NCBI GenBank assembly: GCA_963702045.1
Contig: OY969701.1
Coordinates: forward strand, 3,886,452-3,950,451
From: Pyrinomonadaceae bacterium
Lineage (GTDB): Bacteria; Acidobacteriota; Blastocatellia; Pyrinomonadales; Pyrinomonadaceae
DNA: 64,000 nucleotides
Reading direction: 5' to 3'
The notes under the pieces were generated by a model that saw nothing but the letters and a program-made list of their open reading frames with translations, made no database searches and was not told the DNA's origin. Positions 5,706 to 56,556 of this stretch are shown one piece after another; position 1 is the first letter of the stretch; the number at the start of each line of letters is the position of its first letter. The translations under genes and the position numbers were made by a program.

Positions 5706-7421
5706 CTACTGCCCCGGGGTTGGATTTGTCGGCGTCGGAGGTGGCGGCTGATTCTCCTTCGGCGCAGTCAGCTTGTAATCGTCAAAGCTGCTGTCGAAAC
5801 GGTGGTAGTTACTGAACTCCTGCATCAGGTTCACTTCAACTCCCTTGAACAGAAAAACCTTTGCCGAGATGTTGACCTGCGCCATCACCGGCAACCAGAC
5901 GCCATCCTCCATTCGTTTCTGTTCAAACGTAAGCGCCGTCCCAGGTCGAATCGACGCCAGCAACCCGCCACCGACTTTGTAACTATCGACCAGCCTCGCT
6001 TCCAACCGCATGACCTGTTTGTCTACCGGATCGATCCACATGACGCCGGCCAGCTTGCTTATGATCGCTTCGACTCGTCCCTTCGGTTTGTATCCCACGC
6101 GAGGACGAAAGTCGAAAACGATTGCATCGCGATCGCGCAGACGTTCGCGCCTCGGTGAAATCAGTTCAGCCGCGCGCAAAAAATCCGCTATTCCGGGATC
6201 GTCTTCTTCTTTCGGAGGTTTGCCCTTCAGCTTATCGCGCTCGCGTTTCTCCATCCGTTTCTCGCGCTCGCGCTGGGCTTTCTCCAGTTCTTCGGTGACC
6301 CGCTTCTCTTCCTTCGCGAGCTTTTCGCCGGACAATGCGACGCCGTTCTCGCTGATCAGCTTCTCTACATCTCTTCCATCAGGAATCGGATAAATTTCAA
6401 ACACCTTGACGGTTTCTTCCGTCAGTTCGCCGCGTCCGTTGATCTTCCGCTCGGTCCTTTTCTCTGTGTAGGTGTAATCGCCGACACGTTCGTCGACCTG
6501 CTCCTGATTGCGGTCGACTTCTCTTAAGAGCGCGCTGACATCTATGGCTTCTGCCGTCGGAGGGTCAAAGAAAGCGTCCGCAATGTCAGTGTTGTAACGA
6601 ACCGATTGCAGGTGCAGCGTCAACGCTTCCGTCGAGCCGTTGCTGAACTGGATTCGATGCGGCTCGAGCAAGCCGCTTTCGGCGCGATAGTCGCTGAATC
6701 GAGTTTCGAGATTTCCACGTTCGTCGCGCGATTTCAAAAGCAGTTTGCTCGAAACGCCGAACCAGTATCTGAACCGCGCGCCGTTCCTGGACGAAAATTC
6801 GACGACGTACGCAGGCTCGCTTTCCGATTGATCCAAAGTTACGGTTCGGGCCAGTACATTTCGTTTTTTGTAATCAAGAAATCGACTAGCTTCCAGCGCG
6901 GCTTTCAACTTTGCGACATTCGCTTCGGCGTCGGTCAGCGTGCGGGTGATCGCAAGCACGCCGGCGGTCGCTTCCGATCTACGCATCCACGCGGAACGCG
7001 AGTTGGCTCCAGTGCTGGTTTCGCCGTCTCGCGCGAACATGATTTCGAGCGGCGCCTTTCGATTGCCTGATTCCGCGTCGACCAGACTCTTCGAAGCACC
7101 CGCTCGTGAGCTCAGAACAAAATCCCACCGAAGCGCAGACGGAGATTTCAGATAAGACTTCGCAGTTCCGGTCGCTTGCAACGGCGTTGAGCCGCTGCTG
7201 CCGTTCACCACCTGCCATTCGTACACAGCGGCTCGGATCGCGATAACACGTTTCTTTCCGCCGATCGCTTTCACGTATTCGCCGGCGATTTTGTCAGGCG
7301 ACGGCAGCTTCTTTTGTCCCGAGGTTCGCGTGTACGTAGTTACAGGAAGGCAAGCAAGGAGGAGCAGAATCAAAAGGCCGATGGGGGAATTTCTCATAAT
7401 TCGGTAGATGCTGTTAGGCAT
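5706..7421 (-). CDS. secreted protein or lipoprotein of unknown function
   Basis: 571-codon ORF with an N-terminal hydrophobic segment ending LLILLLLAC, a Lys/Glu-rich central segment and a Pro-rich tail. No enzyme motifs recognised. No Shine-Dalgarno sequence, because the F1 hairpin abuts the ATG. Confidence 0.75.
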   Translation of the reverse strand: MPNSIYRIMRNSPIGLLILLLLACLPVTTYTRTSGQKKLPSPDKIAGEYVKAIGGKKRVIAIRAAVYEWQVVNGSSGSTPLQATGTAKSYLKSPSALRWDFVLSSRAGASKSLVDAESGNRKAPLEIMFARDGETSTGANSRSAWMRRSEATAGVLAITRTLTDAEANVAKLKAALEASRFLDYKKRNVLARTVTLDQSESEPAYVVEFSSRNGARFRYWFGVSSKLLLKSRDERGNLETRFSDYRAESGLLEPHRIQFSNGSTEALTLHLQSVRYNTDIADAFFDPPTAEAIDVSALLREVDRNQEQVDERVGDYTYTEKRTERKINGRGELTEETVKVFEIYPIPDGRDVEKLISENGVALSGEKLAKEEKRVTEELEKAQREREKRMEKRERDKLKGKPPKEEDDPGIADFLRAAELISPRRERLRDRDAIVFDFRPRVGYKPKGRVEAIISKLAGVMWIDPVDKQVMRLEARLVDSYKVGGGLLASIRPGTALTFEQKRMEDGVWLPVMAQVNISAKVFLFKGVEVNLMQEFSNYHRFDSSFDDYKLTAPKENQPPPPTPTNPTPGQ

Positions 7422-7510
7422 ATGTCAGATGCTAGATGTCGGATGTTAGATGTTGGTCTCGGTAGTCGTTCATTTCGAACTGATATCTAACATCTAACAT
7501 CCAACATCTG
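7422..7510. repeat. Family F hairpin with heptamer-repeat arms, copy 1 of 2
   Basis: Left arm is five tandem ATGYYRG units (7422..7456). Right arm is three to four complementary CYRRCAT units (about 7481..7507). The related element is at 9490..9615. Confidence 0.85.
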
Positions 7511-7526: not shown

Positions 7527-7706
7527 CTACGTACTCTTTCCTTCCATTGTTTCAGACGCGTCCGGCGGTTGCGGGACGTCCGCATCCATAGCCGCGGCGG
7601 ATTCCTGCTCAGCCTCGAGTTCGTTTTCCTGATTATCGCGGGCGGCGTCTACCGGCTCAGGTTTCTCCAGGGTTTCCCTGGTTTGTTGGGTCGCTGGTTT
7701 ATTCAT
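7527..7706 (-). CDS. candidate small acidic protein (59 aa), speculative
   Basis: Hand-translated as MNKPATQQTRETLEKPEPVDAARDNQENELEAEQESAAAMDADVPQPPDASETMEGKST. Its ATG overlaps the stop of the upstream small ORF (ATGAATAATGAATAA). It falls below the 60-aa cutoff of the ORF track. Confidence 0.25.
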   Translation of the reverse strand: MNKPATQQTRETLEKPEPVDAARDNQENELEAEQESAAAMDADVPQPPDASETMEGKST

Positions 7707-7911
7707 TATTCATCTCCTGACCTTGATTCCCTTTATTCCCTTTATTCCCTTTGTTCGTAGCATGGTTCTGATCTTCGCCCGCGGGTCCTTTCAGATGTCG
7801 CTCGCGTTCCTCCTGAGCGATCGCGGTCTGATTCTGTTGAAACTCAAACTCGTTTAGCTCTCCGCCTTTGATTTTGTATTGATTGATATTCTCTGCTGGA
7901 TCTTTCGGCAT
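7699..7911 (-). CDS. small hydrophilic protein (about 70 aa), unknown function
   Basis: AAGGGGG Shine-Dalgarno sequence lies 7 nt before the ATG at 7911 (GTG at 7914). Hydrophilic sequence with a KGNKGNKGN tract. No homolog recognised. Confidence 0.45.
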   Translation of the reverse strand: MPKDPAENINQYKIKGGELNEFEFQQNQTAIAQEERERHLKGPAGEDQNHATNKGNKGNKGNQGQEMNNE

Positions 7912-7934
7912 CACGATTCCCCCTTAAGTTTTTT

Positions 7935-7992
7935 ATGTCCGACAAACTTTAGTTTGTCGCGTGTCATCGACAAACTAAAGTTTGTCGGACAT
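7935..7992. repeat. Family B palindromic element (double unit)
   Basis: ATGTCCGACAAACTTTAGTTTGTCG-CGTGTCAT-CGACAAACTAAAGTTTGTCGGACAT. The GTCCGACAAACT/AGTTTGTCGGAC core recurs at 8155, 33870, 42430, 53063 and 56458. Confidence 0.9.
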
Positions 7993-8021
7993 TTTTCGGA
8001 AATTCGTTTTTGTACGCTCGC

Positions 8022-8068: not shown

Positions 8069-8144
<76 letters not shown>

Positions 8145-8154
8145 AAAAATTCTT

Positions 8155-8182
8155 ATGTCCGACAAACTGAAGTTTGTCGGAC
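8155..8182. repeat. Family B single hairpin, possible tRNA terminator
   Basis: TGTCCGACAAACTGAAGTTTGTCGGACA is a perfect 12-bp stem lying 10 nt after the tRNA CCA end. No T-tract follows. Confidence 0.85.
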
Positions 8183-8192
8183 ACTGCTTGAC

Positions 8193-9489: not shown

Positions 9490-9615
9490 AGATGTCAGAT
9501 GTTGTCGGATGTCGGAACGGCAGATGTTTGATGCTGGATGTTAGATGTTGACGAAAGTAGGGGTCAGGTCCGGTTCTTCTTTTACTGACATCTAACATCT
9601 GACTTCCAACATCTA
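9490..9615. repeat. Family F hairpin with heptamer-repeat arms, copy 2 of 2
   Basis: Left arm is eight GATGYYR units with two phase breaks. Right arm is four complementary YRRCATC units. The loop is unrelated to copy 1. Confidence 0.85.
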
Positions 9616-9616
9616 C

Positions 9617-10240
9617 TTAGCTCGTTGGACGCAGCAATCCGCGGAAAATTCCCTGGACTGAAACCTGCGACGCGGGAAGGCGCATCGGCGCGAGGCGTGA
9701 GTTTGCCGGCCGCAGCTCAACGGTCGAACCAAACCGGAAAAGACGTTTCAACGTAGCGCGAGTACCATCAACCAAAGCGACAACGATCTCGCCGTCGCGA
9801 GCTTCGGTTCGATTCTCGATCAGCGCGATATCGCCGTCGCAAATATGTTCGTCGATCATCGAATCGCCGCTGACTCGCAACGCATAAACTCTTTCCGGAC
9901 GTACTCGACCGAGCAGAAATCGCGGGACAGAGATCGGCTCGCTGTCCTCGATCGCCTCGATCGGAGCACCGGCGGCAATTCTTCCCAGCAACTGAACTTC
10001 ACAGATCGCGTCTGAAGAAACTTCTTCGACTTTTACCGCCAGACCGAACGCACCATCCGCCCTGTGTCGCGAGAGCAATCCGCGTTTTTCCAACGCCGCA
10101 ATATGTTTGGCGATCGTCGCTTTTGATTTGACGTTGAAGAAGCGAGCGATCTGGGCATACGAGGGTTCGTAGCCGTGACGTTCGATGAAACTCGATATGT
10201 AATCCAGAATCTCTTTCTGGCGTTGTGTGCGTGGAAGCAT
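9617..10240 (-). CDS. lexA: LexA repressor (S24 peptidase)
   Basis: Winged-helix N-terminus (QKEILDYISSFIERHGYEPSYAQIARFF), cleavage-region AAG, catalytic VSGDSM and a downstream TLKR Lys motif. 207 aa. Confidence 0.93.
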   Translation of the reverse strand: MLPRTQRQKEILDYISSFIERHGYEPSYAQIARFFNVKSKATIAKHIAALEKRGLLSRHRADGAFGLAVKVEEVSSDAICEVQLLGRIAAGAPIEAIEDSEPISVPRFLLGRVRPERVYALRVSGDSMIDEHICDGDIALIENRTEARDGEIVVALVDGTRATLKRLFRFGSTVELRPANSRLAPMRLPASQVSVQGIFRGLLRPTS

Positions 10241-10388: not shown

Positions 10389-11111
10389 TTACTTCGCCCT
10401 GCGGCTGGAATAGCGCGAGAGCGTTTGCGGAAAAATGCGAACACCGGCCGGCATGTTTCTCAACGTCATGCCGCTTCCGCTCTTCAGAACGTCGTTTGCT
10501 TTCTTTCCATAGACTGCTTCGTTCAGATCGTTGTCCGGATTGATGACCGCGCCTTCCAGCGACGCACCAATGAACGCGCCCTTGCTGCGCGAATATGAAA
10601 GAATTCCCGCGTCAAGCGTCACGTTCGTGGAAGCGGCGGCCGTTCTGCCAACCGGACCTGCCGAGATGCTGGCCTGCGCGCCGATTTCGAACTTGTCTTC
10701 GAGCAATCCGTTCAGTCCCTCGTCATTCATGATAAGCAGAACGTAGTCGGTTTTTTGCGCTCCGATCTGCGCACCAAAACTTCCGCCGCCCAGATTGAAG
10801 AATGCCGGTGCATCCCATCCGTTCTTTGTGCGACGACTGATCACGCCCTGTCCACCGCGCCCGCCAAAGATGAATGCGGCCTTTACCACGCCCGGGAAAA
10901 CCATTATCGCTTCGGCTTTATCAAGCAGCTCTTTCGGAATCGCCTTATCAGGCACCGCCATTATTTCGTTGAATACCTTGGAAGCGTCGCGCGCATGCCG
11001 CTCGGCGTCCTTTAGTCTCTTGTTCTGCGCCGGAGCAACCGCCGCCGTCAAACACAGCACGGCGAAAATACTCAGCGCGCAAAACACCTTTCGTTTAATA
11101 AACCGGTTCAT
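10389..11111 (-). CDS. SYLF (DUF500/Ysc84-like) lipid-binding domain protein, secreted
   Basis: Signal peptide MNRFIKRKVFCALSIFAVLCLTAAVAPA. Gly-rich SYLF pattern (FGGRGGQGVISRR, FFNLGGGSFGAQIGA, SISAGPVGR, YSRSKGAFIGASLEG). AGGAGG Shine-Dalgarno sequence precedes the ATG at 11111. Confidence 0.85.
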   Translation of the reverse strand: MNRFIKRKVFCALSIFAVLCLTAAVAPAQNKRLKDAERHARDASKVFNEIMAVPDKAIPKELLDKAEAIMVFPGVVKAAFIFGGRGGQGVISRRTKNGWDAPAFFNLGGGSFGAQIGAQKTDYVLLIMNDEGLNGLLEDKFEIGAQASISAGPVGRTAAASTNVTLDAGILSYSRSKGAFIGASLEGAVINPDNDLNEAVYGKKANDVLKSGSGMTLRNMPAGVRIFPQTLSRYSSRRAK

Positions 11112-15420: not shown

Positions 15421-15644
15421 AGGGGTTTTCTCCTTTACTGGATGATTGGAAGCTCGCGACGTTGCAGGTGATGAAGGTCGTTGCGAAATCCGGCCGGCAG
15501 GAACGGTTGAAGGTCCTTCTTGATCTTTAGTCGGAACCGGTTTTTTCCAGAAGGCTAATCACTCGCTCGGTGAAGTCGCGCCAGCCCAAAACGATCGTGA
15601 GCATCGCTGTAGTTGATGCGGCCCGCTTACAGAGATCGACGACT

Positions 15645-15740
15645 GGTAAATAGTGAATGGTAAATGGTAAATAGAAGGTTCAGTGATCGCTCGGCGCTAT
15701 TTTCCATTTACCATTCACTATTTACGATTCACCATTTACC
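15645..15740. repeat. Family G hairpin with heptamer-repeat arms
   Basis: Left arm GGTAAAT AGTGAAT GGTAAAT GGTAAAT. Right arm has six complementary ATTYACY units. Single copy in this window. Confidence 0.85.
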
Positions 15741-15900: not shown

Positions 15901-16220
15901 GAAGACGGCCGTTCGCGAGGCATTAATTTTCTCGAGTTGGGCAAATCAGAACAGCGGTGTTGAGGCGCAAAGGCGTGTCGATGTCCGGATCGACACAGAA
16001 AACGTGCGGCCGCGAATACGCAGAATTCAAAAACTTACGAACGATTGTTTAGGGGGCAATGAGAAAACTGGCTGACCACCAGCGCGAACCACAGATAGAT
16101 GCTACGTATTTCGAAACTGTTGCTCTCTAAAACGTGGGTTGGCGACGGGGTTAAGTGAGGTCCAAACCGTGGCCGGAATCAGTGTAACTCAGGCCGAACG
16201 CGGCAAGCAAAGTTTTTGAG

Positions 16221-16320
16221 GGAGCGCAGGCGGCTCGCCTGCACTGAGCGCCGCAGGCGCGAAAAGCGCAAATGCATTATTCGCGCTTCGCGCTCACTGC
16301 AGGCGAGCCGCCTGCGCTCC
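16221..16320. repeat. Family C palindromic element (long copy)
   Basis: GGAGCGCAGGCGGCTCGCCTGCA ... TGCAGGCGAGCCGCCTGCGCTCC. The right half, TTCGCGCTTCGCGCTCACTGCAGGCGAGCCGCCTGCGCTCC, is nearly identical to 53208..53248. Confidence 0.9.
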
Positions 16321-16411
16321 TTCGTCGAATTTGACTGCTCCGGTCTTTGATGCGACCATCGGCGTCACTCAAACTTAAGCATTACTATCAGAACAACGGG
16401 AGGGTTTTATC

Positions 16412-16618
16412 GTGGAAGTGAACAAAGAGAACGTCGTATCACAGGAAGAAACCGGCGAAACCGCGCCGATGGACCAGGTCGAAAACCGCGTAGAGGCCGA
16501 GATGAAACGTATCGAGGGCCGAGCCAAAGAACGCGTGGCCCATGGATTACAGGATGAAGAGCTCGAACGAGACGCCCAGAAGTTGAAAGAAGAAGGCGAG
16601 CGCGAGAAGCCGGCGTAA
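16412..16618 (+). CDS. small CsbD-like stress protein (tentative)
   Basis: GGGAGG Shine-Dalgarno sequence lies 8 nt before the GTG. IEGRAKERVAHGLQDEELERDAQKLKEEGE resembles the GKAKE..G...DEELE..GK CsbD repeat. 68 aa. Confidence 0.45.
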   Translation: MEVNKENVVSQEETGETAPMDQVENRVEAEMKRIEGRAKERVAHGLQDEELERDAQKLKEEGEREKPA

Positions 16619-17376: not shown

Positions 17377-17970
17377 TTAATAAATAACGTCGAAAGTTGC
17401 GATGCGTTGCAGGTCCGATCCTACGATCGCAAAATTGGATCCTGTCAGCGGCTCACGCGGTCGAACTTCCATAAAGAGCATACCACCATCACGCGCCAGC
17501 ACGCGATAATGCGGCTTTACGATTTGATCGGAATCGATCGCAAAACCCTTCTGGCCTTTCTGCGCCATTGCAGTGACTCGCCGATCGCCTCGTCTTTGCG
17601 TCAACTGCACAAGAAAAGGTGGATGCTGATTCGGCTCGTCCCGCACAAACATGTAGATGCGCGGGAGCGGGTCGTTCACTTTCGATGTTGAATTGGTTCC
17701 CTTCAGTTCAATGAAGCTGGTTTTGTCGCTACCGGCCACTTCCGAGGGCTTAAGCGAAGTGGCACCTCTTTCAAACGGCAAAGCGACGAGCGCGCCGGAT
17801 TTGTCGGCTATGTAAACCAACGAGCGATCTGCGGGAGGCGATGGGATCGTTTCCTGAGTTGCAAAAGCAAGACGAACGGATGAGGTTTGAAAAGCGAATG
17901 ATGTAGGAAGAACTACGAACAATAGCCCGGCTAACGCAATTCTCACTAGCCTAAGCAATTCTCCTGTCAT
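17377..17970 (-). CDS. secreted hypothetical protein
   Basis: Start moved to the internal Met (MTGELLRLVRIALAGLLFVVLPTSFA signal peptide). The upstream 43 codons of the listed ORF run into repeat D2. Confidence 0.6.
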   Translation of the reverse strand: MTGELLRLVRIALAGLLFVVLPTSFAFQTSSVRLAFATQETIPSPPADRSLVYIADKSGALVALPFERGATSLKPSEVAGSDKTSFIELKGTNSTSKVNDPLPRIYMFVRDEPNQHPPFLVQLTQRRGDRRVTAMAQKGQKGFAIDSDQIVKPHYRVLARDGGMLFMEVRPREPLTGSNFAIVGSDLQRIATFDVIY

Positions 17971-18001
17971 CCGGTACCGGTGCAGTTTGGGAGAAGTTAA
18001 A

Positions 18002-18182: not shown

Positions 18183-21100
18183 TCACCCAATGTCCTGCGA
18201 ACGTAACGCGATGATCGTAGCGATGATCAAACCGAAAAACATTATGAGCAGGACGATCGGATTCAAAAGCGTGTGTCCCCACGGATGCAGGAAATTCACG
18301 TAATTGCTCAGATCTTCCGGGATCTTTACCGCCTCCTGAATCTTCGGCGCGGGCGCCAACTCCGGCGCAGCCGGTTTTTCCCCGCTGACGCCGCGCTGCA
18401 TGTCCGTCAGATACGTTTCCATTTTGTCCTGATAGTCCCTGGACTCTTTGTCGGCGTCTGACCGGTATTTCTCGATATCGGCTTTGGCCTGTTCGATGTT
18501 GTCTTCGTTTTTCTTCTCGACGTACTTGTAGACACCGCGCCCTTCGTTCGGACCATTAGGGTCCGAGCCCTCTTCTTCCAACGTGTCGAGACCAGACAGT
18601 CGTTTCATTTCGTCAAACGACCAGGTGGCCGGCATTGTCAGTCCGACTAACTTCGAAACTCCGGTGGGAACTCCGACCAGTCCCGAAAACAGAATCTGCG
18701 GAATCAGGATGAGCGGGACCAGGCTGGTGGCCATCTCGGAAGTCTTTACGATCGCGGAGATGAAAAGGCCCAGCGCGATTCCGACCATGCCTGTAACGAT
18801 CATGACCAGGAGTTGCGGGAAGCCGAATAACCACTCGGGCCAGGCCGGCAATTTCGTCAGGCCGGCTAGATCGAAAAGCTTCAGCGTGCCGAAAAGCAGA
18901 ACGCATTGAACGCCGACGATCAACGAAAGCACGAGCAGCTTCGAGCCGACGTATGGCAACAAGCCAAGATTGACCATCCGTTCGCGGTTGTAGACAGCCC
19001 GCTCGCGTATGATTTCGCGCGCCGCCACCGACGTGCCGAACCAAACGGCGACCAGAGCCAGAACAAAGAACGGAAAGTCGCGGGGCGCGTCCGCCGCCAC
19101 GACCAGATAGGTCAGTACCGCCACGATCGGCGCCTGGCCAAACAGGATCAGCAGGTTGAATTTGTCACGTCCGAGAACTTCCATGTATCGGCGCGCGAGC
19201 GTGGCCCATTGTCTGAGCGCGTCGGTCACACTTGGCCGGCGCTTGGCAGGCGCGTTGACCTGCATGTCGCGTTTGAGTCCGCTGAGCGGTTGGACGATGT
19301 TCTGCTGATACTGTGACGTCTGTTGGAATCTGCGTTTCCAATCGTTCGCGACCTCTTCCGAGATCTGTTCCTTGCGAAGCTTGAAATCCTTCTTCTGTTC
19401 GCCAGTAGAGTCGGGCGGAAGCGGCGGCATTTTCGCAACTTTATCGTCGATCGGCGCTTCCAGTTTGTCGTACAAGTCTTTGAAGCTGTCCGCCTTTACG
19501 TGGGCCAGCGCTTCCTGCGGCGCGCCGTAGAAAACAAGCTTGCCGCGCATCATGACCACGATCTTGTCGAACAGTTTCACGTTCTCCATCGCGTGCGTGG
19601 TCAGGATTACCGTGCGGCCACTCTCCGCGATCGTTCGGAACAGCCGCATGATCTTCTCTTCGGTAGCCGGATCAAGACCCGACGTCGGTTCGTCAAGAAA
19701 GATAACCGACGGTTTTGTGATGAGCTCGACAGCGATCGAAACGCGTTTTCGCTGGCCGCCGGACAATTGACCGACCGGAACATCGCGTCGTTCTGCCAGG
19801 CCTGTGACGTCCATCACCTCGCTGACGATCTGATCAATTTCCTGTTTCGAAACGTCGCTCGAGAGGCGCAGTCGCGCGACATAGTAAAGCGTGCGATAGA
19901 CGGTCAACTCGCGGTGAATGATGTCGTCCTGCGGAACGTAGCCGATCGACTGCTTGATCGAATCCAGATGCTGATAGAGATCCAGGTTGTTGATCAGCAC
20001 GTGGCCGCTGGAAGCAGGCCGCATCCCGTTGAGCGAATCCATCAGCGTCGACTTGCCGGCTCCCGACGGACCCAACAGTCCGACAAACTCGTTCGGCTGG
20101 ATCGTCAGGTCGACATCGTCGAGCAGCTTTATCATCCCGCCGCCCGAGCGGTTTTTCACTTCTTTCGTAATGTCGATGCAATCGATTCGCGTTTTTGAAC
20201 GCGTGTCAAAAATCGCTACGCCGCGCTGTGCATCCGCTTGAAGAACGAACGGACCGATCTGAACTACGTCCTGGTTTTGAACCGGACGACGGCCGGTTAT
20301 GCGGGTTCCGTTTACGTAGACTCCGTTGGTCGAGCCGGCATCTTCGATAAAGACGCTGCTGCCCTGTTGCTTTACGGTGGCGTGGTGATTCGAGATCTGC
20401 AGTCCGTCGAGCCGGATATCGTTGTCAGGTGCGCGACCGATAGAAAGTTGCGCCCGTCCGTCAAACGCGAGCTGCATCAAGAGCTGAGGCTGCGCACCGC
20501 CCTGCGACGGATGCGGCATTTGCTGGCTGAGCGAACCTGAGCCCGGCTTGACCACCATCGTGCCCATGTGGACGCCCTGCCGGGGCGATACAGGAGCCGG
20601 GCCGCCACCGACCGCGGGGACTGCGCCGCTGACGTTGCGTTGCGCTGCGGGCTGTCCGGCCGCCAGAGCCGGATGGGCCGGATCGTTAAATCTGAGAATC
20701 GGACCGCCCATTCCCAACTGAAGTCGATCGCCGTCATACAAAGGCGTCGGCGCGGTTATGCGCTGGTCGTTGATCAGCGTTCCGTTAAAACTGCCCAGAT
20801 CAAACAGAACGCATTGGCCGTCTCGTCGTCGGATTTCAGCGTGCTTGCGCGAGACCACCGCAGAGTCGGCATCGATGACAACGTCTGCGGCCGGGTCGCG
20901 GCCGAGGAGTATCACTTCCTTGTCACTGATCGTTACCCGCTCCATTTTGCCGGTCGCCGATCGCAGCAATTCGATCGTCGGTTGCGCCGCAGACGGCGCG
21001 GATTTTTTTGGCGGAGGCGGAGCAGCGGGGGGTGGTGGCGGAGGCGGAGCTACTGCAGCCGGTGGCGGCGCTGCGGGTGGTTTCGGGGCTGCTGGTTTTT

Positions 21101-21542
21101 GTGCCGGCGGAGGTGGCGGAGACGGGGCGGCCGGTTTGACGGGTTCCTGAACTGCCATACCCGACGGCAAGTCGCGATGCGTTTCCATATCGGCGCGAAC
21201 CGGCGGGGGCTGCTGTAGCGGTGCCGCAGATTCAATTCGCGCGACACGCATCACGGGACCACCCGCGCCGAACTGAATACTGGCTCCGGATTTGATTTCG
21301 GTCGGCTCGCTGACTCGCTGGCCGTTGACGAAAGTTCCAAAGCTGGAATTCGTATCAACCAGCAAACACCGCTCGTCCTTCAAACGAAACTCGGCATGTC
21401 TGCGCGAGACCATGGGCCATTCTGTCTGGTCGAACACGATGTGACATTCAGAAGGGTCGCGTCCGACTTTGACGGTCTGTTGATCAAACGAGCGCTCGCC
21501 GCGCTGCTGTCCATTGCGTTCTTCGATTAGAACGATTTTCAT
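18183..21542 (-). CDS. ABC exporter (fused ATPase plus ABC-2 permease) with three N-terminal FHA domains
   Basis: Three FHA cores (GRDPSECHIVF..VSRRHAEF..SSFGTFVNG; GRDPAADVVI..VSRKHAEI..SFNGTLIND; GRAPDNDIRL..ISNHHATV..STNGVYVNG) are separated by Pro-rich linkers. Then Walker A GPSGAGKST, LSGGQRKR, IFLDEPTSGLD, and about six C-terminal TM helices. Confidence 0.93.
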   Translation of the reverse strand: MKIVLIEERNGQQRGERSFDQQTVKVGRDPSECHIVFDQTEWPMVSRRHAEFRLKDERCLLVDTNSSFGTFVNGQRVSEPTEIKSGASIQFGAGGPVMRVARIESAAPLQQPPPVRADMETHRDLPSGMAVQEPVKPAAPSPPPPPAQKPAAPKPPAAPPPAAVAPPPPPPPAAPPPPKKSAPSAAQPTIELLRSATGKMERVTISDKEVILLGRDPAADVVIDADSAVVSRKHAEIRRRDGQCVLFDLGSFNGTLINDQRITAPTPLYDGDRLQLGMGGPILRFNDPAHPALAAGQPAAQRNVSGAVPAVGGGPAPVSPRQGVHMGTMVVKPGSGSLSQQMPHPSQGGAQPQLLMQLAFDGRAQLSIGRAPDNDIRLDGLQISNHHATVKQQGSSVFIEDAGSTNGVYVNGTRITGRRPVQNQDVVQIGPFVLQADAQRGVAIFDTRSKTRIDCIDITKEVKNRSGGGMIKLLDDVDLTIQPNEFVGLLGPSGAGKSTLMDSLNGMRPASSGHVLINNLDLYQHLDSIKQSIGYVPQDDIIHRELTVYRTLYYVARLRLSSDVSKQEIDQIVSEVMDVTGLAERRDVPVGQLSGGQRKRVSIAVELITKPSVIFLDEPTSGLDPATEEKIMRLFRTIAESGRTVILTTHAMENVKLFDKIVVMMRGKLVFYGAPQEALAHVKADSFKDLYDKLEAPIDDKVAKMPPLPPDSTGEQKKDFKLRKEQISEEVANDWKRRFQQTSQYQQNIVQPLSGLKRDMQVNAPAKRRPSVTDALRQWATLARRYMEVLGRDKFNLLILFGQAPIVAVLTYLVVAADAPRDFPFFVLALVAVWFGTSVAAREIIRERAVYNRERMVNLGLLPYVGSKLLVLSLIVGVQCVLLFGTLKLFDLAGLTKLPAWPEWLFGFPQLLVMIVTGMVGIALGLFISAIVKTSEMATSLVPLILIPQILFSGLVGVPTGVSKLVGLTMPATWSFDEMKRLSGLDTLEEEGSDPNGPNEGRGVYKYVEKKNEDNIEQAKADIEKYRSDADKESRDYQDKMETYLTDMQRGVSGEKPAAPELAPAPKIQEAVKIPEDLSNYVNFLHPWGHTLLNPIVLLIMFFGLIIATIIALRSQDIG

Positions 21543-21549
21543 AGGGGAT

Positions 21550-22372
21550 GCTTTCTGTAAGAACTCAGGAGTCAGAAGTCAGGAGTCAGAATAAGAACTC
21601 TGGTAGGCTTGCCTCCTGTGTTCTGTCTCCTGACTTCTGTCTCCTGCCTTTCAGCTTTCTGTAAGAACTCAGGAGTCAGAAGTCAGGAATCAGAATAAGA
21701 ACTCTGGTAGGCTTGCCTCCTGTGTTCTGTCTCCTGACTTCTGTCTCCTGACTTCTGTCTCCTGACTTCTGTCTCCTGCTTTTCAGCTTTCTGTAAGAAC
21801 TCAGGAGTCAGAATAAGAACTCTGGTAGGCTTGCCTCCTGTGTTCTGTCTCCTGACTTCTGTCTCCTGCTTTTCAGCTTTCTGTAAGAACTCAGGAGTCA
21901 GGAGTCAGAATAAGAACTCTGGTAGGCTTGCCTCCTGTGTTCTGTCTCCTGACTTCTGTCTCCTGCTTTTCAGCTTTCTGTAAGAACTCAGGAGTCAGAA
22001 GTCAGGAATCAGAATAAGAACTCTGGTAGGCTTGCCTCCTGTGTTCTGCCTCCTGACTTCTGTCTCCTGTTTTTCAGCTTTCTGTAAGAACTCAGGAGTC
22101 AGGAATCAGAATAAGAACTCTGGTAGGCTTGCCTCCTGTGTTCTGTCTCCTGACTTCTGTCTCCTGCTTTTCAGCTTTCTGTAAGAACTCAGGAGTCAGG
22201 AATCAGAATAAGAACTCTGGTAGGCTTGCCTCCTGTGTTCTGTCTCCTGACTTCTGTCTCCTGCTTTTCAGCTTTCTGTAAGAACTCAGGAGTCAGGAAT
22301 CAGAATAAGAACTCTCGTAGGCTTGCCTCCTGTGTTCTGTCTCCTGACTTCTGTCTCCTGCTTTTTCAGCTT
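21550..22372. repeat. tandem array of 8 hairpin units (Family H, heptamer-repeat arms)
   Basis: Units start at 21550, 21654, 21786, 21876, 21973, 22077, 22174 and 22271, with lengths 104, 132, 90, 97, 104, 97, 97 and 98. Each unit is GCTTTCTGTAAGAACTC + (AGRAGTC)n + loop ATAAGAACTCTGGTAGGCTTGCCTCCTGTG + (TTCTGTC TCCTGAC)n + TGCTTTTCA. Confidence 0.95.
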
Positions 22373-24018
22373 TTTCCCAACGTGAACGAATTTAGAATCA
22401 TCGGCAGCTCCCCTTTGACGCCGACATCGTCAACGCTTTGGAGTTCGGGAGCCAACGACGTGGTTAGCATGTAGAGCGTCACGCCTTTTGAATTGTTTTC
22501 ATCTCCGGGAGGCAGGTAAACGACACGACCCCAAATGTTCATGTCACTCCCGTCCGGTCCCGCCGAGATTGCCTTGAAGCGAACTTCGTATCCTTCGATC
22601 CCGTTGATCGTGGTCTTGCCTTCCGAAACCTTCTGATATTCCGGTAACGTCTTCGAGTAATTCTCGTCCAATGCCTTGATCAGGTCCGGCAGTCGTCCGG
22701 CCAGGTCGGCTTCAATCGTGCCTTTGCTGTCGTACCAGCTAACGGCCAGATCTTCCTGCGTTTTATCTGGCGGAAGCCGTCGCTCGACTTCCACGAAATT
22801 GGCGGCGCCGGGCACTCCGGCTTTGGGACTTTTTTGCCACGACTGCGGATAGTAGAAATAGAAATCAACGTAGTGCTCGGCAAGTTTTCCGTCCAGCGTG
22901 TCCTTCGTGTTTTCAAACTTGATCGAACCCGGCGGAGCATCCGGCACTTTTACCGCTTGCGTCGGGGACGGGCTGGCGGCGACGTTCGCGTTGCGATTGT
23001 TATTAATAGTTGGATCGACGGTTACAACTCCGCCGTCGTCTTTCGGCGCCTTGTTACGAATAAAGATGAAGTACGCACCCACTCCTCCGGCGATCAAAAG
23101 CAAGAGAACGAGGACGCCGCCAACCGCCAGAACCAATCCGAGCTTCGATTTTTTTTGCGGCGCCGCGGGCGGCTGATTGATCGGGCCCGTCGTTGGCGTC
23201 GTTGGCGTCGTGGGCGTCGTGGGCGTCGTGGGCGTCGTTGGCGTCGTGGGCGCCGAGGGCTGTGCAGCGGATTGCGGACCCAGCTGCTGACTAAACTGGC
23301 TGTCAAAAGTCGGGGTTTCGCGGTGTGATTCGCGCGAAGCGTCCATCGGTCCCGTTTGGAACGGCGCTCCGGTGGTGGGTGGAAGCGGCGGTGGAGCAGG
23401 CGGAGTCGGCGGCGCCATCATCGTCGGAAATTGCTGCGGCGGCGGAGATTGCGGCGGTGGAGATTGCCTCGGCGGCTCGGCTGCCGGTGGCTCTTCCGAA
23501 CGCAGTGGCGGCAATGGCTGCGAAAGCCTTGTTGTCTGTTGCTGCAGACCCTTGGTTTCTCCCGACGGACCAAAAGTGCTCGTGCCCAACAGCGTAGGCG
23601 CCGACGAAGGCGACACAGGAGGTTGTTGTTGTGAAGGCGGTTGTTGGGGCGGCTGAGCCTGTTGCGGAGGCGGAGGCGGTTGCTGTGGTGGCTGAGCCTG
23701 TTGCGGAGGCGCCGGTTGTTGCGGCTGCGGCGGCTGTGCTTGTTGCGGAGGCTGTGGTTGTGGCGGCTGCGGCTGTGGGGGCGTCGAGGGCAATGGTCCT
23801 GCAATCGTTGCGTTTAGGTCTTGCGGTCGCTCGGCCGGCTGTCGCGGAGCCGGCGGCGTTGTCGGAATATCCAAATTCGAGAGATGCCCCTGAACAGTAG
23901 CATTCGGATCAAAAACCTGCGGCCGTTCAAAATCCGGCACCAGCCTTCCGCCGTCGTGCGTACAGAACTTCTGCATGTCGTCCTGATAACTGCGATTACA
24001 TTTCGGGCAACGAAGCAT
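22366..24018 (-). CDS. zinc-ribbon, Pro/Gln-rich single-pass membrane protein with a C-terminal extracytoplasmic domain
   Basis: N-terminus MLRCPKCNRSYQDDMQKFCTHDGGRL, about 270 aa of P/Q low complexity including a (PTT)n tract, TM segment LGLVLAVGGVLVLLLLIAGGVGAYFIFI, and a C-terminal domain of about 220 aa of normal composition. Confidence 0.75.
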   Translation of the reverse strand: MLRCPKCNRSYQDDMQKFCTHDGGRLVPDFERPQVFDPNATVQGHLSNLDIPTTPPAPRQPAERPQDLNATIAGPLPSTPPQPQPPQPQPPQQAQPPQPQQPAPPQQAQPPQQPPPPPQQAQPPQQPPSQQQPPVSPSSAPTLLGTSTFGPSGETKGLQQQTTRLSQPLPPLRSEEPPAAEPPRQSPPPQSPPPQQFPTMMAPPTPPAPPPLPPTTGAPFQTGPMDASRESHRETPTFDSQFSQQLGPQSAAQPSAPTTPTTPTTPTTPTTPTTPTTGPINQPPAAPQKKSKLGLVLAVGGVLVLLLLIAGGVGAYFIFIRNKAPKDDGGVVTVDPTINNNRNANVAASPSPTQAVKVPDAPPGSIKFENTKDTLDGKLAEHYVDFYFYYPQSWQKSPKAGVPGAANFVEVERRLPPDKTQEDLAVSWYDSKGTIEADLAGRLPDLIKALDENYSKTLPEYQKVSEGKTTINGIEGYEVRFKAISAGPDGSDMNIWGRVVYLPPGDENNSKGVTLYMLTTSLAPELQSVDDVGVKGELPMILNSFTLGKS

Positions 24019-25393: not shown

Positions 25394-28189
25394 TCAAGGT
25401 TCACGGACAAGACGAAATCCGAGCAGATCATTCTTCGTCGTCGGCACTATCCAATCCCGATACGTATTGGAAATCGGTTTATTGCCGCGCGAATCACTGG
25501 CCAACGAGCCGCCGCGTATGATTGCCCAGGTTCGGTGGGCCGGGATTATCGTCAGCTTGCTGCCCGGGTAGTACGAAGCTGTCGACGATGTCCACTCCCA
25601 AACATTGCCTATCATATCGAGGTGGCCCCACTTTGCCTTACCTTCCGGAAACGATCCAACCGGTTGGACCGAAGCGAATCCCGCGTCCTTGATAGCCGCC
25701 CGACCGCTGGCCCATGTATTTCCCCATGGATAAAGATTGCCTTCATCGCCGCCACGCGCGGCGTATTCCCATTCCTCTTCAGTCGGAAGCCGGTACTTAA
25801 CTCCGTCGCGCTTTGAACGCCATTCAGCGAACGCATTCGCATCGGCCAGTGACACATCGGTAACCGGCCATCGCTCCTGGCCTTCAACTGGTTTTTTCCC
25901 GGCCCAGTTTGAAGGCGGGGTGCGCTCTGTGGCCGCTACAAACTCCGCGTACTCGCCGTTGGTGACTTCAGTCTTGTCCATGGAGAATTCGCCGACCTGA
26001 ACCTGGTGCGGCGGACCTTCCTGCACCAGCTTGCCCGCGCGTCCCATTTGAAATGGACCGCCCGGAACGCTGATCAATTCGGACACGTAGTTTTCTACCA
26101 CAGGAGGCTGCGAACGATTTTCACGGGGCCGGACCCGACCCGATGGATTGGCTACAACCGGAGGCTTCGTGACTACCGTTCCTCCTGATTGCCTGAATTT
26201 CAAATACGCCCCGACGCCACCGCCGACCAGTAACACTATACCGATTATCGCTGCCGCAATTCGAAATGAATTCGATTTCTTGCCCTGAACTTCAACCGCT
26301 TCATATCCAATCACCGATCTCCCCGCAACACCGCCCATAGTTTCCGACGCCCGCGCCGGAGTTTGTGCAGGAGGAACCTGGTCTTTTCCGTACATCGACT
26401 GCGTCACGACGCCTTGTCGCTGGTCCTGCGTCGATTCCAGGTTTAGAGGAACCACCAGCGTGTCATCTATCGAAGCAGCGACACTCTGCGGCTCGATAGG
26501 TTCGCGCTCTTTGCTGTCTTCGCGGACAAGCTTTTCTCGCTCGGACCTCTCGCGGGCTTCCTGCTCTTCAACGGCCAGAAGCGGCGCGCTGTCCTGCGCG
26601 CCCGTTATAGACTTAGACCTATCATCTTCCGCTACGCCACCGCGCGTTCTTGTTTCCGCTCGTTGGCGCTCACTAGCTTCGTGAAGCCGCGCCGCGTCGG
26701 TTTCGGCACGTTGGCGCTCGTCGGCTTCGACCTGGACCTTGGCGGCCTGCGCTTCTGCTTTGCGCCGCGTCTCTTCATCTGCTTTGCGTTGTGATTCTTC
26801 GTCAGCCAGTCGACGAGCTTCCTCGCGCTGTCGCGCCGCATCTTCTTCCTCACGCTGTCGCGCCGCATCTTCTTCCTCGCGCTGTCGCGCGGCTAGTTCG
26901 TCTGCCTTCTGCTTCGCTTCCGCTTGGGCCTTTAGCCGCGCTTCTTCTTCGCGCGCCAATTCCTCACGAGCAACACGGTCTTTCGCTTCCTGATCGAGCC
27001 GTTCCTGTTCGCGTCTTTGCGCTTCCGCCGCCTGCCGAGCCCGCTCTTCGAGTAAGTCGGCCTGAGCCCGCAATCGTTTGGCTTCCATCGACGCAGCGCT
27101 TTGTTCGTGAGCGTAATCCTCGAGCGAATTGGAAAGTCCGCCCAGACTCTGGAAACTGGTAGGCGGGATGGTCGGTGGCGCGGCTGACGTTACAAGCGTC
27201 GCCGAGTCCAAGCTGTACGGATCTTCGTAAGTAGTAGCCAGCGCGCGCGTAGCACTGCCAACCGCCTCGCGAAGCTCCTGAACAAAAACGTCGACCGACG
27301 CCGGTCGATCCGCGGCCTCTTTTTCCAACGCGTGACGAACAGCCGCTTCGATCTGCGCGGGAATTTGAACTCCCATTTCGCTGAACGTAGGCGGTTCCAA
27401 TGTCAGGTGCTTTTTCATGATCGACGGAATCGACGTACCCTTGAACGGAACGTCGCCGCCGAGCATTTGATACATGATCACACCCAAACTGTAGATGTCG
27501 GCTTTTCCATCCGGCTCTTCATCCGACCATTGCTCCGGAGCCATGTAAAAAGGCGATCCCATCAGCCCGCTCGTCTTCGCCTGTACAAAAGAACCGAGCA
27601 GCTCGCCGGACTTTATCTTCGCCAAACCGAAGTCAAGAATCTTCAGTCCCTCGGCGATCGGAAGACCGTTCTGAATCATTATGTTCAGCGGCTTCAAGTC
27701 CCTGTGCACGATGTTCTGCCGATGCGCGGCGGCGACCCCGGCGCCGATCGCGGAGATCAGCTCCAGAGCTCGCGCGGGCGGCAGAGATTTTTCCGCGGCG
27801 AGAATGTCGTGCAGCGAACGACCCTCGACAAACTCCATCACCAGGAACGGCATGGTGCCGCGCACGACTCCAAAATCGGTTACGGAAATGATGTTTTGAT
27901 GGCGAATCGCAGCGGCGGCCAACGCTTCCTGACGAAAACGCGTGACCAGCATCGGATCGTTGCCGACCAGGTCCGGAAGAATGACTTTTATCGCGTGTGA
28001 AGTTTTGAGGAAGATGTGCCGCGCCTTGAAAACAACACCCATTCCGCCGTGTCCCAAACGCGTTTCCAGTTGGTAACGACCGTCCAGCATCGGCTCGCCC
28101 GCGATCGAGTGCGTCGTAGCATCACCGTCATTCGGACAGTGATTCACGTGATCGGGATAACAACGCCTACAAGCCGGACATTCTTTCAT
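25394..28189 (-). CDS. Ser/Thr protein kinase with N-terminal zinc ribbon, coiled coil, TM helix and C-terminal FGE-sulfatase (SUMF1-like) domain
   Basis: MKECPACRRCYPDHVNHCPNDGD. Hanks motifs GHGGMGVVF, AIKVI, HRDLKPLNIM, DFGLAK and YMAPE. Glu/Arg/Ala-rich coiled coil, TM segment IAAAIIGIVLLVGGGVGAY, and an FGE-like end (MDKTEVTNGEYAEF, EEEWEYAARGG, GNVWEWT, RGGS). Confidence 0.95.
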   Translation of the reverse strand: MKECPACRRCYPDHVNHCPNDGDATTHSIAGEPMLDGRYQLETRLGHGGMGVVFKARHIFLKTSHAIKVILPDLVGNDPMLVTRFRQEALAAAAIRHQNIISVTDFGVVRGTMPFLVMEFVEGRSLHDILAAEKSLPPARALELISAIGAGVAAAHRQNIVHRDLKPLNIMIQNGLPIAEGLKILDFGLAKIKSGELLGSFVQAKTSGLMGSPFYMAPEQWSDEEPDGKADIYSLGVIMYQMLGGDVPFKGTSIPSIMKKHLTLEPPTFSEMGVQIPAQIEAAVRHALEKEAADRPASVDVFVQELREAVGSATRALATTYEDPYSLDSATLVTSAAPPTIPPTSFQSLGGLSNSLEDYAHEQSAASMEAKRLRAQADLLEERARQAAEAQRREQERLDQEAKDRVAREELAREEEARLKAQAEAKQKADELAARQREEEDAARQREEEDAARQREEARRLADEESQRKADEETRRKAEAQAAKVQVEADERQRAETDAARLHEASERQRAETRTRGGVAEDDRSKSITGAQDSAPLLAVEEQEARERSEREKLVREDSKEREPIEPQSVAASIDDTLVVPLNLESTQDQRQGVVTQSMYGKDQVPPAQTPARASETMGGVAGRSVIGYEAVEVQGKKSNSFRIAAAIIGIVLLVGGGVGAYLKFRQSGGTVVTKPPVVANPSGRVRPRENRSQPPVVENYVSELISVPGGPFQMGRAGKLVQEGPPHQVQVGEFSMDKTEVTNGEYAEFVAATERTPPSNWAGKKPVEGQERWPVTDVSLADANAFAEWRSKRDGVKYRLPTEEEWEYAARGGDEGNLYPWGNTWASGRAAIKDAGFASVQPVGSFPEGKAKWGHLDMIGNVWEWTSSTASYYPGSKLTIIPAHRTWAIIRGGSLASDSRGNKPISNTYRDWIVPTTKNDLLGFRLVREP

Positions 28190-28458: not shown

Positions 28459-28748
28459 GGGGGAAGGGGTCAGGGGTCGGGGGTCGGGGGCCGGGGGCCG
28501 GGGGTCGGGGGCCGGGGGACGGGGGCCGGGGGCCGGGGGCCGGGTTTTGGGTTTTGGGTTTTGGGTTTTGGGTTTTCAGATTTTGGTTCGATGTTCTGAA
28601 ATCTCAAATTGGAATCTGGCCCTCCGACCCCCGACCCCCAGCCCCCGTCCCCCGGCCCCCGACCCCTGCCCCCCGTCCCCCGTCCCCCGTCCCCCTGCCC
28701 CCCGTCCCCCGACCCCCAGCCCCCCTCCCTCCCCTCTTCCCTCTTCTG
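28459..28748. repeat. G-run / C-run heptamer palindrome (Family I)
   Basis: Plus strand: about a dozen GGGGNCR heptamers (28459..28541), five GGGTTTT units (28542..28576), a spacer of about 40 nt, then at least 15 C4-6 runs in CCCCCNN heptamers (28619..28748). It ends 13 nt before the ATG at 28762. Confidence 0.9.
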
Positions 28749-31054: not shown

Positions 31055-31200
31055 GTTTTCTCGCAAAGACGCGAAGGAAAGTAAATACAAAAGGCGCAAA
31101 GAAATGCCGAAGAACTGGTTAGACGTACCGGATCATCCTGTTAAGGACTCTTCAGAACTCTTCGCGCCTTATGTATTTCCTTTGCGCCTTTGCGAGAAAC
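31055..31200. repeat. Family E palindromic element (long copy)
   Basis: GTTTTCTCGCAAAGACGCGAAGGAAA ... TTTCCTTTGCGCCTTTGCGAGAAAC. Lies between the NPP gene start and the leuS stop. Confidence 0.85.
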
Positions 31201-33793: not shown

Positions 33794-33869
33794 TGTCTTT
33801 TGCCTTTACGGAGTTCCTACAATTAATCACGAAATCGCTGTCTGCACAAAGTGGTCAGATATCCGGCCG

Positions 33870-33966
33870 ATGTCCGACAAGCTTTAGCTTGTCGACGACT
33901 TGCCCGGGCTTGAAGCCTCGTATGTCGACGACAAACTGAAGTTTGTCGGACATTCTTGTCGGACAT
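33870..33966. repeat. Family B bipartite palindromic element
   Basis: TGTCCGACAAGCTTTAGCTTGTCG, a 35-nt spacer, CGACAAACTGAAGTTTGTCGGACAT, plus an extra TTGTCGGACAT. The spacer resembles that of 56458..56552. Confidence 0.9.
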
Positions 33967-34278
33967 TTTTGCGACTATTGGTTTTTGAAGAAGGAGTATC
34001 GCCGCGTCAACCGCCGCGCAAGACTACGCGCGGGCGCCGAGCGGCACCGTAAGGGCGAGACAGGACAGATTGTAGGTTCGTATCATGATTTTTCTTGAAC
34101 TCAACTCTACTTAATCTGATCGTATCTTATCGTAGCGAATATCAGTTCGTCGAGTGGAAATAGGGTACTGGGTCAATTTGAAATCACGCCTTAAGAATCT
34201 CGTCAACGCCGAAGGCGTTACAATGCGAATTTCTTCAAACTGACCACTATCGGAAATAGACTGGTCTCTCAACCTAAT

Positions 34279-34375
34279 GCAGTCAGGAAGGGGACCCTGT
34301 CCCCGCTTGAAATTTGTATTTGCCTTTGAAATTATCCTTACTAGCGGCGGGGACAGGGTCCCCTTCCTGACTGCG
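34279..34375. repeat. Family A palindromic element, copy 2 of 3
   Basis: Arms identical to copy 1. The loop is unrelated. Confidence 0.9.
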
Positions 34376-41358: not shown

Positions 41359-41456
41359 GCAGTCAGGAAGGGGACCCTGTCTCCGCTTCTTAAGCTCTTT
41401 ATTTCAGCTTTGAGATCTGTTTGTTAGGCGGGGACAGGGTCCCGTTCCTGACTGCG
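41359..41456. repeat. Family A palindromic element, copy 3 of 3
   Basis: Arms carry one substitution each relative to copies 1 and 2. The loop is unrelated. Confidence 0.9.
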
Positions 41457-42397: not shown

Positions 42398-42429
42398 ATT
42401 GTTCTCCTGTTTGGCACTGGTTCAGCTTG

Positions 42430-42513
42430 ATGTCCGACAAGCTTTAGCTCGTCGTTGACTTTCTTTCATGTTCAATTGGCGACGTCAGCGACAAACTAAA
42501 GTTTGTCGGACAT
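42430..42513. repeat. Family B bipartite palindromic element
   Basis: TGTCCGACAAGCTTTAGCTCGTCG, a 34-nt spacer, CGACAAACTAAAGTTTGTCGGACAT. Confidence 0.9.
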
Positions 42514-42520
42514 TGGGACA

Positions 42521-43819: not shown

Positions 43820-43862
43820 GCTTTTGCTTTGCTCTTTCCTGGCGCCTTTGCGCCTTTGCCGG
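43762..43862. repeat. Family E palindromic element lying inside two coding sequences
   Basis: CCCGCAAAGGCGCCAAGGCGCCAAGAA ... TTCCTGGCGCCTTTGCGCCTTTGCCGG (24 of 27 complementary). The arms encode the tail of Nfo (GKGAKAPGK) and the N-terminus of the dehydrogenase (LGALAPLRE). Confidence 0.75.
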
Positions 43863-49805: not shown

Positions 49806-49941
49806 TTTCACGCAAAGGCGCGAAGAACCGAAAGCAGAAGACGCAAAGAAAATCATTCATTATCTTTGCAGTTCTGAGCGCTTGTAACATTGCTTCCCCT
49901 TTGCGCCTCTTGCTTTCGGTTCTTTGCGCCTTTGCGTGAAA
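49806..49941. repeat. Family E palindromic element (long copy)
   Basis: TTTCACGCAAAGGCGCGAAGAACCGAAAGCAGAAGACGCAAAG ... CTTTGCGCCTCTTGCTTTCGGTTCTTTGCGCCTTTGCGTGAAA, 43-nt arms with about 39 complementary positions. Confidence 0.88.
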
Positions 49942-53087: not shown

Positions 53088-53127
53088 CTCGTTGCTATTT
53101 CCAACTCAAGACGGAGCGCAAGCCGAT

Positions 53128-53248: not shown

Positions 53249-53326
53249 TTCGGCCCTGTCCCGCTTGACACCCATACGGGAATTAGCGACCCTTTCTCGC
53301 TTGCTCCTAACGCGGTCTGCACCTAC

Positions 53327-56456: not shown

Positions 56457-56457
56457 A

Positions 56458-56552: not shown

Positions 56553-56556
56553 CAAT

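Follow-up and report, generated by a model that had tools for sequence, protein, structure and literature searches.

Tandem-heptamer hairpins after stop codons in Pyrinomonadaceae: putative REP-like elements with arms that change in 7-nt steps

Introduction

An excess of heptamers in prokaryotes has been known since 2007, and we know of no accepted cause for it. Earlier work has dealt with this excess and has suggested about 7 nt as the length of a polymerase contact (cited in PMC4679880 and PMC4692102). The STRR sequences of heterocystous cyanobacteria and the TAACTGA repeats of Beggiatoaceae are intergenic tandem heptamers with many copies per genome, mainly direct arrays of a few fixed heptamers that often lie just upstream of start codons (PMC4679880); 169 direct sets were counted there against one inverted set. 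In Xanthomonas campestris, 186 GGGAATC arrays were described, 70 cases of which are convergent inverted pairs (Rehm et al. 2015, PMC4692102). Xanthomonas genomes hold 70-75 convergent array pairs each, at a mean of 28 nt to the upstream ORF and 160 nt to the next ORF, and this one G-rich heptamer was treated as a G-quadruplex (G4) element (PMC4692102). The REP, BIME and REPIN elements of Proteobacteria are extragenic imperfect palindromes that form dispersed families at gene 3' ends and inside operons, occur in clusters or tandem arrays, differ in family between relatives and in many cases lie at most 15 nt from a stop codon (PMC12306157, PMC3116915, PMC3733652).

Here we describe hairpins with arms of tandem heptamers in a 64-kb stretch (64,000 nt, hereafter the window) of a chromosome from a soil bacterium of the Pyrinomonadaceae (Acidobacteriota) and in related loci. 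The closest precedent is the Xanthomonas pairs, since in both cases intergenic, complementary heptamer arrays converge, can form a stem-loop and lie nearer to the 3' end of the upstream ORF; the array lengths, which are not conserved between Xanthomonas species, were counted as a further likeness (PMC4692102). In contrast to the single G-tract heptamer of Xanthomonas, dozens of heptamers are used here, mostly not G4-capable, and the distance to the stop codon is shorter, with a median of 5-6 nt; the elements occur at about 75 hairpins per Mb sampled and in a different phylum. The intergenic tandem heptanucleotide is shared with STRR and TAACTGA repeats, but the arrays described here are mostly paired and complementary, follow stop codons, use many heptamers rather than a small fixed set, and belong to a host that is not a heterocystous cyanobacterium. 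All the properties listed above for REP, BIME and REPIN elements recur in our hairpins; REP arms, however, are 20-40 nt long, non-periodic and marked by a GTAG or CGTC tag, whereas the tandem-heptamer arms are 20-120 nt long and lack a tag, and the RAYT gene to which REPINs are tied, a single-copy gene per genome, was not seen in the 64-kb window and the lexA neighbourhoods. Like Rho-independent terminators, which take the same slot in sister species, the hairpins follow the stop codon and have A-rich sequence ahead of the stem and T-rich sequence behind it; their stems, however, are several times longer, with loops of 15-80 nt and a weak U-tract, and many lie near the next start.

A first-pass annotation of the window had held that a common mechanism, 7-nt slippage on a hairpin template in unrelated sequences, would be new. 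This was overstated, since the heptamer excess and the idea of 7-nt polymerase slippage (PMC4679880, PMC4692102) as well as the inverted Xanthomonas pairs (PMC4692102) were already published. The layout is thus known. New are the lineage, the multiplicity of heptamers, the density and polarity of the hairpins and their close placement at stop codons; our literature search found no report of such elements in Acidobacteriota.

Materials and methods

The lexA-anchored comparison placed the host in Pyrinomonadaceae, Acidobacteriota, in agreement with the early impression that the DNA is not cyanobacterial. The window is ordinary chromosome, with glpK, glpD, lexA, leuS, asnB and peptidase genes, and the anchor gene was:

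9617..10240, minus strand: lexA (Peptidase_S24 and LexA DNA-binding domain), its 3' end adjoined by hairpin E2; anchor for 160 loci

By means of lexA, 80 related loci were fetched, one genome per species, all from Pyrinomonadaceae/Blastocatellia (Acidobacteriota); the LexA most similar to that of the window had 92% identity. These loci, compared with the window, carry L-numbers (L001, L002 and so on). The main repeat sample consisted of the window and the 80 genome loci (1.30 Mb), and arrays of at least 3 copies called by Tandem Repeats Finder (TRF) were counted. A second sample comprised 80 lexA loci on metagenome contigs (0.50 Mb; best LexA identity 93%). Every sampled locus surrounds lexA, and the counts are those of lexA neighbourhoods, not of whole genomes. 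For the 80 loci, genes were predicted from codon bias with a simple and crude ORF model, which gave a coding fraction of 81% and missed some genes. Long hairpins (arms of at least 21 nt; n = 232) were collected by an independent hairpin finder. Slippage was assessed by alignment of the eight nearly identical units of E4, and similarity between elements by all-against-all comparison of the elements with 150-nt flanks.

Assembly artefact was ruled out as a source of the hairpins, as the identical architecture recurs in orthologous slots of many assemblies made independently, multi-megabase contigs among them. A search for RNA-seq runs of this organism found none. In the DNA runs, only relatives of about 90% identity were present, as short contigs ending at hairpins; short-read assemblies of Pyrinomonadaceae genomes break at these points because heptamer hairpins sit there.

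Results

Five places in the window had been pointed out as heptamer hairpins, and TRF called period-7 arrays at each of them, with complementary arms. The five elements (E1-E5) and the genes needed to place them are:

7422..7510, no strand: E1, arms 7422-7454 (ATGYYRG x4.7) and 7485-7510 (complementary, x3.6), loop of 30 nt
7527..7706, minus strand: small conserved ORF, 59 aa, without Pfam match, its 3' end preceding E1
7699-7914, minus strand: small ORF overlapping the 7527-7706 ORF, without Pfam match; a 9-nt repeat (7721-7756) encodes NKG repeats
9490..9615, no strand: E2, left arm 9490-9549 with about 8 units and phase breaks, right arm 9588-9615 with 4 units
15644..15740, no strand: E3, arms 15644-15674 (TGGTAAA / TAGTGAA x4.1) and 15697-15740 (x6.0)
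21549..22373, no strand: E4, hairpin unit of about 97 nt repeated eight times head-to-tail, AGRAGTC arms and their complement
18183..21542, minus strand: FHA-ABC transporter gene; the E4 array ends 7 nt upstream of its ATG
28459..28746, no strand: E5, the longest hairpin, GGGGNCG x11.3 (28466-28544) and C-rich units x15 (28624-28729)

The bounds of the arrays in TRF were 7422-7454 and 7485-7509 for E1, 15644-15672 and 15699-15740 for E3 and 21550-22373 for E4. Compared with dinucleotide shuffles, all five elements folded much more stably, with z = -6.6 (also -7.6) for E1, -2.3 (also -2.9) for E2, -6.9 for E3, -3.6 to -7.2 for the units of E4 and -7.8 for E5. Outside the open frames of the window we counted 8 period-7 arrays against 2 arrays of all other periods together, and a 50-kb E. 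coli control run with identical TRF settings gave one period-7 array, within a gene; chance is therefore excluded.

E1 lies 16 nt 3' of the stop of the ORF at 7527..7706 and adjoins the ATG of the ORF at 5706..7421 (both on the minus strand). The C-terminal part of the former ORF keeps 84-86% DNA identity in L002, L003 and L081, where the neighbouring genes have only 72-77%. E2, read on the minus strand, starts 1 nt past the lexA stop codon (9617-9619); its TRF arrays are 9522-9549 and 9588-9615 (4.0 copies each), the phase-broken units from 9490 were read from the sequence, and the loop (9550-9587) holds an inner stem. A different heptamer had been assigned to each element type; in E1 and E2, however, one heptamer, AGATGTY, appears in two rotations. 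E1, E2 and the element of L073 have AGATNTCAGT at the arm-core junction in common.

The surroundings of E3 are a stretch of about 1 kb without a conserved ORF, which also holds a large palindrome. This stretch is followed by an ORF of 68 aa rich in charged residues (16412-16618, plus strand), kept in dozens of related loci (tblastx 62-74%). The E4 array takes up the gap between the stop codon of the ORF at 22366..24018 (minus strand) and the transporter gene, whose ATG is 7 nt away, with unit lengths of 103, 132, 90, 97, 104, 97, 97 and 104 nt. The ORF at 22366..24018 (550 aa, without Pfam match) itself carries in-frame repeats, at 23188-23260 (9-nt x8) and 23435-23782 (15- to 42-nt units). 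E5 has a small inner stem at its centre and also holds GGGTTTT x5 (28542-28576), which had been taken as part of a complementary arm and turned out to be without a complementary partner in E5. A G4-prone arm begins each strand of E5. E5 is placed atypically, in the gap between a minus-strand gene (25394..28189) and a divergent MerR-like gene with its start near 28754; neither E3 nor E5 stands beside a stop codon, and both are divergent-gap exceptions, the only two in the whole sample.

The proposed enrichment of period 7 over periods 6 and 8 was borne out in the 1.30 Mb, where TRF called 237 arrays of period 7 against 101 of period 6 and 34 of period 8; periods 9, 12 and 3 gave 44, 42 and 42 arrays. 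Periods that are multiples of three lay almost wholly within open frames, as did nearly all period-6 arrays. Outside long open frames, 110 arrays of period 7 remained, with 11 of period 8 and 2 of period 6. Among the 232 long hairpins, 68 had an arm autocorrelation of at least 0.7 at lag 7; the corresponding numbers for lags 6, 8 and 9 were 1, 8 and 2. In the metagenome replicate (0.50 Mb) period 7 led again, with 40 arrays as compared with 15 for period 6 and 11 for period 8, and 10 of 59 long hairpins were periodic at lag 7. In Pyrinomonadaceae, tandem DNA outside genes grows and shrinks by 7 nt at a time. A minor second mode of the same phenomenon is seen in the period-8 hairpins (8 of the 232 long hairpins), of which the CTTTGCG(C) type occurs in the window at 31057-31199, 43759-43865 and 49806-49941 and also in L001, L068, L074 and L076.

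A complementary period-7 array was called within 300 nt for 126 of 235 period-7 arrays, about 50 further arrays had a reverse-complement match of at least 17/21 nearby, and roughly a quarter were unpaired. The expectation of many heptamers stood, since the 235 arrays contain 86 distinct heptamers when rotation and strand are allowed for (the commonest being AAGGATG), and the single degenerate family that would have spoken against it was not found. Single-linkage clustering of heptamers (at most 1 mismatch) joined 229 of the 235 arrays; this is expected by chance given 14 rotations and strands, and we discarded it as carrying no descent signal. Only a few families are G4-capable (E5 and a few with G-runs), and AATGATG, AGTGACG, AACCGTR and AGATGTY are not among them. 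That the two arms usually differ in unit number holds for the window but not in general, where a difference of at least 1 unit was present in only 22 of 63 pairs.

The composition of the arms is polar. The 5' arm is richer in G than in C (A.32, C.13, G.34, T.20), a bias seen in 88 of 94 heptamer hairpins; the arms being palindromic, this is true on both strands, and 14 of 15 hairpins in the metagenome replicate agree. The bias is weaker in non-periodic hairpins (138/212). Stop codons in three frames were considered as a purpose of the C-poor 5' arm and rejected, the effect (29% of arms against 20% with letters permuted within units) being too weak. When loops were at least 40 nt, 9 of 31 hairpins contained an inner stem: five are GC-rich and terminator-like, at the centre of the hairpins of L027, L037, L041, L043 and L055, and three are a second heptamer hairpin. 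Such hairpin-in-loop, nested composites occur in L034 and L073.

An association with gene ends, which had been proposed for testing, was confirmed by the positions of 98 heptamer hairpins, none of which is genic: 68 lie in same-strand gaps, 26 in convergent gaps, 2 in divergent gaps and 2 at contig ends. Divergent gaps make up 24% of the intergenic length, yet hold only 2 of the 98. In same-strand gaps the hairpin starts at a median of 5-6 nt past the upstream stop and ends at a median of 97 nt before the next start; 52 of 64 same-strand hairpins are at most 15 nt from the stop (pairings between E4 units removed). Between convergent genes the heptamer hairpin fills the gap, with a stop codon typically 5-13 nt away on either side. 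Many heptamer hairpins stand 4-30 nt ahead of the start of the next gene, inside apparent operons. The stem is followed by a T-rich tail (T 0.40-0.50 at +2 to +8) and preceded by its A-rich mirror; a clear T-run was seen in only 14 of 58 elements, the U-tail being weak.

We compared the occupants of the same slots in other species. Downstream of lexA, AGTGATG hairpins are found in L001 and L007 and a shorter run of this type in L002, AGTGACR in L015, L075 and L078, AGAAAGT in L039, ATTTTTG in L054, CTGACTC in L046, and in L073 a CAGATGY hairpin whose loop encloses another heptamer hairpin; many other species carry a plain GC-rich hairpin with a T-run behind it. The slot of E1 holds a classical terminator in L002 and L081 and, in L003, a GTAG-type palindrome (GTAGGGGC...GCCCCTAC), a relative of which also follows lexA there. 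It seems that whichever palindrome family is active in a genome fills the shared gene-end slots. In one slot, five species with flanking coding sequence of about 95% identity carry a heptamer hairpin that reaches from the stop to the next ribosome-binding site, built of AGTAGGC in two species, of GGAGTCA/GAAGTC in one and of AATGATG/AATGCGG in two. The slot is thus conserved, and what fills it, here three heptamer families, is exchanged far more rapidly than the flanking sequence changes.

Similarity confined to the elements was found for 116 pairs in the all-against-all comparison. Members of the AACCGTR family have the core GTGACAAGAG...CTCTTGTCAC in common; L051 holds three of them, and in L055 three lie within 20 kb. 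Non-orthologous sites carry AATGATG/AATGCGG elements in several species and members of the E3 family in L030, L004 and L082, and the heptamers of E4 recur in L014, L018, L020 and L046. This homology over arms and core at non-orthologous sites, also within one genome, contradicts the initial picture of unrelated sequences each shaped in place, and shows the elements, as judged by their sequence similarity, to form dispersed multi-copy families of extragenic palindromes. No conserved tag was found at the 188 outer ends (GTAG within 8 nt of 20, CGTC of 2), no target-site duplication was evident in the alignment of the slot with flanks of about 95% identity, where slippage blurs the element ends, and no transposase domain was found among the ORFs of the 64-kb window.

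The eight units of E4 allowed the behaviour of the arms to be followed. All internal length differences are 7, 14 or 28 nt and affect one arm each, in line with the claim that the arms change independently in 7-nt steps. The further claim that slippage takes place on a hairpin template was not supported: about a quarter of period-7 arrays are unpaired, and such arrays (GGGTTTT x5, for instance) show that slippage can do without the hairpin. Indels between more diverged family members were mostly gaps of 1-4 nt in loops or poor alignments and unusable as a slippage test. In two family alignments, both-sided changes that keep the pair were present at 8 of 35 and 9 of 36 stem pairs, with few one-sided changes, and variant units are mirrored between the arms (e.g. 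AATGCGG and CCGCATT). Selection for the stem and copying of one arm from the other fit these data alike. The mismatches on the sense strand (33 G:U and 38 A:C) gave no G:U excess as a signature of RNA wobble.

Palindromes of other kinds are also present in these genomes. A separate REP-like family with ends ATGTCCGACA...TGTCGGACAT has 14 matches in the window against 1.3 expected, and two non-periodic families, with cores GCAGTCAGGAAGGGGACCCTGTCCCCGC and GAGCGCAGGCGGCTCGCCTGCA, occupy intergenic gaps with two or three copies each:

7934-7993, 8154-8185, 33869-33967, 42429-42514, 56457-56553, 53062 and 61389: REP-like palindromes of the ATGTCCGACA...TGTCGGACAT family
1129-1224, 34279-34374 and 41359-41455: one non-periodic palindrome family, intergenic
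16196-16345 and 53122-53254: the other non-periodic palindrome family, intergenic

One ATGTCCGACA...TGTCGGACAT copy is a perfect hairpin with 25-bp arms, 77 nt upstream of the tRNA-Thr gene (8069-8144), which is the sole Rfam match near the elements; at a ATGTCCGACA...TGTCGGACAT element, contigs of soil metagenomes reach several-hundred-fold depth and break. In L003, at about 10625-10730 and 17860-18000, a GTAG-tagged palindrome (GTAGGGGCAGGG...CCCTGCCCCTAC) is found in each of the two slots where the window has its AGATGTY hairpins.

Discussion

We think it somewhat probable that these loci are REP-like dispersed 3'-end hairpins, common across Pyrinomonadaceae, with arms remodelled by 7-nt slippage. 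The elements fill a short non-coding slot that starts a few bases after the stop, within operons or between convergent genes, a slot that in sister species is filled by a terminator hairpin or a GTAG-type REP. The families, each with one heptamer type and a common core and with several copies per genome, replace one another at orthologous slots, having spread, we infer, by transposition or by copy-and-paste recombination. The arms slip separately, in 7-nt steps, and the stem survives slippage because any register of the repeat pairs with any register of its complement; variant units are mirrored, perhaps through selection for the stem or through intrastrand template switching that copies one arm from the other. 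Judged by where it lies and by its likeness to REP/BIME, the element probably forms a hairpin at RNA 3' ends, where it could hold up 3' exonucleases or weakly terminate transcription, possibly in both directions. The stop codon may be near enough for the hairpin to interact with the terminating ribosome; in E. coli, REPs at most 15 nt from the stop codon are reported to stall ribosomes and lower translation (PMC12306157).

Several observations could also be explained by growth in place and no mobility, with terminators lengthened outward by 7-nt slippage of their flanks followed by fold-back (intrastrand template-switch) copying, the apparent families then reflecting shared descent at a slot or convergence. 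The short GC-rich, terminator-like stems enclosed by several hairpins, the independent slippage of the arms in the E4 units and the unpaired period-7 arrays would all be expected, and both-sided changes with few one-sided intermediates would be read as templated copying. We nevertheless regard this explanation as unlikely, as arms and core are homologous between non-orthologous sites, both of one genome and of different species, and as the three unrelated heptamer families between flanks of about 95% identity imply a replacement too fast for point mutation and homogenisation. Mobility is the essence of another explanation, by which these are selfish REPIN- or MITE-like elements with no host role, moved in trans by a Y1/HUH or other transposase, and post-stop sites merely tolerate or attract insertions, e.g., into terminator hairpins. 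The dispersed families and slot replacement agree with it, as do the nested composites of L034 and L073, the further REP-like families in the same genomes and the eight-copy tandem array of E4, which resembles REPIN clusters (PMC3116915). On the other hand, neither a transposase among the window ORFs, nor a GTAG/CGTC tag, nor a target duplication was seen, compensatory changes keep the stem, and nearly every species has some hairpin in the slot. Upkeep of the stem and a slot that is nearly always filled suggest that the hairpin is useful to the host, which argues against a purely selfish reading, one that we likewise hold to be improbable.

The heptamers themselves might matter: each could be the site of a sequence-specific DNA- or RNA-binding protein that covers 7 nt, or the arrays could work as functional G-quadruplex elements. 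Factor binding or G4 has been proposed for the heptamer arrays of Nostoc and Xanthomonas (bioRxiv 10.1101/2022.06.06.494920; PMC4692102), the arms of E5 are G4-prone on both strands and the commonest heptamer, AAGGATG, includes GGA; but 86 heptamers with only the period and the G>C bias in common offer no single recognition sequence, only few families are G4-capable and most units are locked in a long stem, and we consider such a role very improbable. We give a little more credit, though still rather little, to the idea that the arms are built not by ordinary replication slippage but by a lineage-specific machine with a fixed step of 7 nt, for example a polymerase that adds repeats or copies by folding back at hairpins or breaks. 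If true, this would explain why one period is found across dozens of unrelated heptamers, why the G-rich strand runs 5' to 3' toward the centre on both strands (88/94), as if two 3' ends had been extended and then joined, and how whole elements are replaced between flanks of about 95% identity.

In conclusion, REP-like dispersed hairpins with slipping arms remain the reading that we favour, and what they may contribute goes beyond their own lineage. Sequence-specific explanations of the heptamer excess could not be excluded before, because the inverted case that had been studied, that of Xanthomonas, has a single G-rich unit. In Pyrinomonadaceae, dozens of unrelated heptamers share one period, one layout, the G>C polarity and the post-stop position, by which step size is separated from sequence; the cause must therefore be the physical step of a machine or a structural requirement. 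Nature here provides a clean system in which to ask why slippage in bacterial DNA goes by seven, and Acidobacteriota, a dominant phylum of soil, gain a large class of 3'-end elements that had been unannotated.
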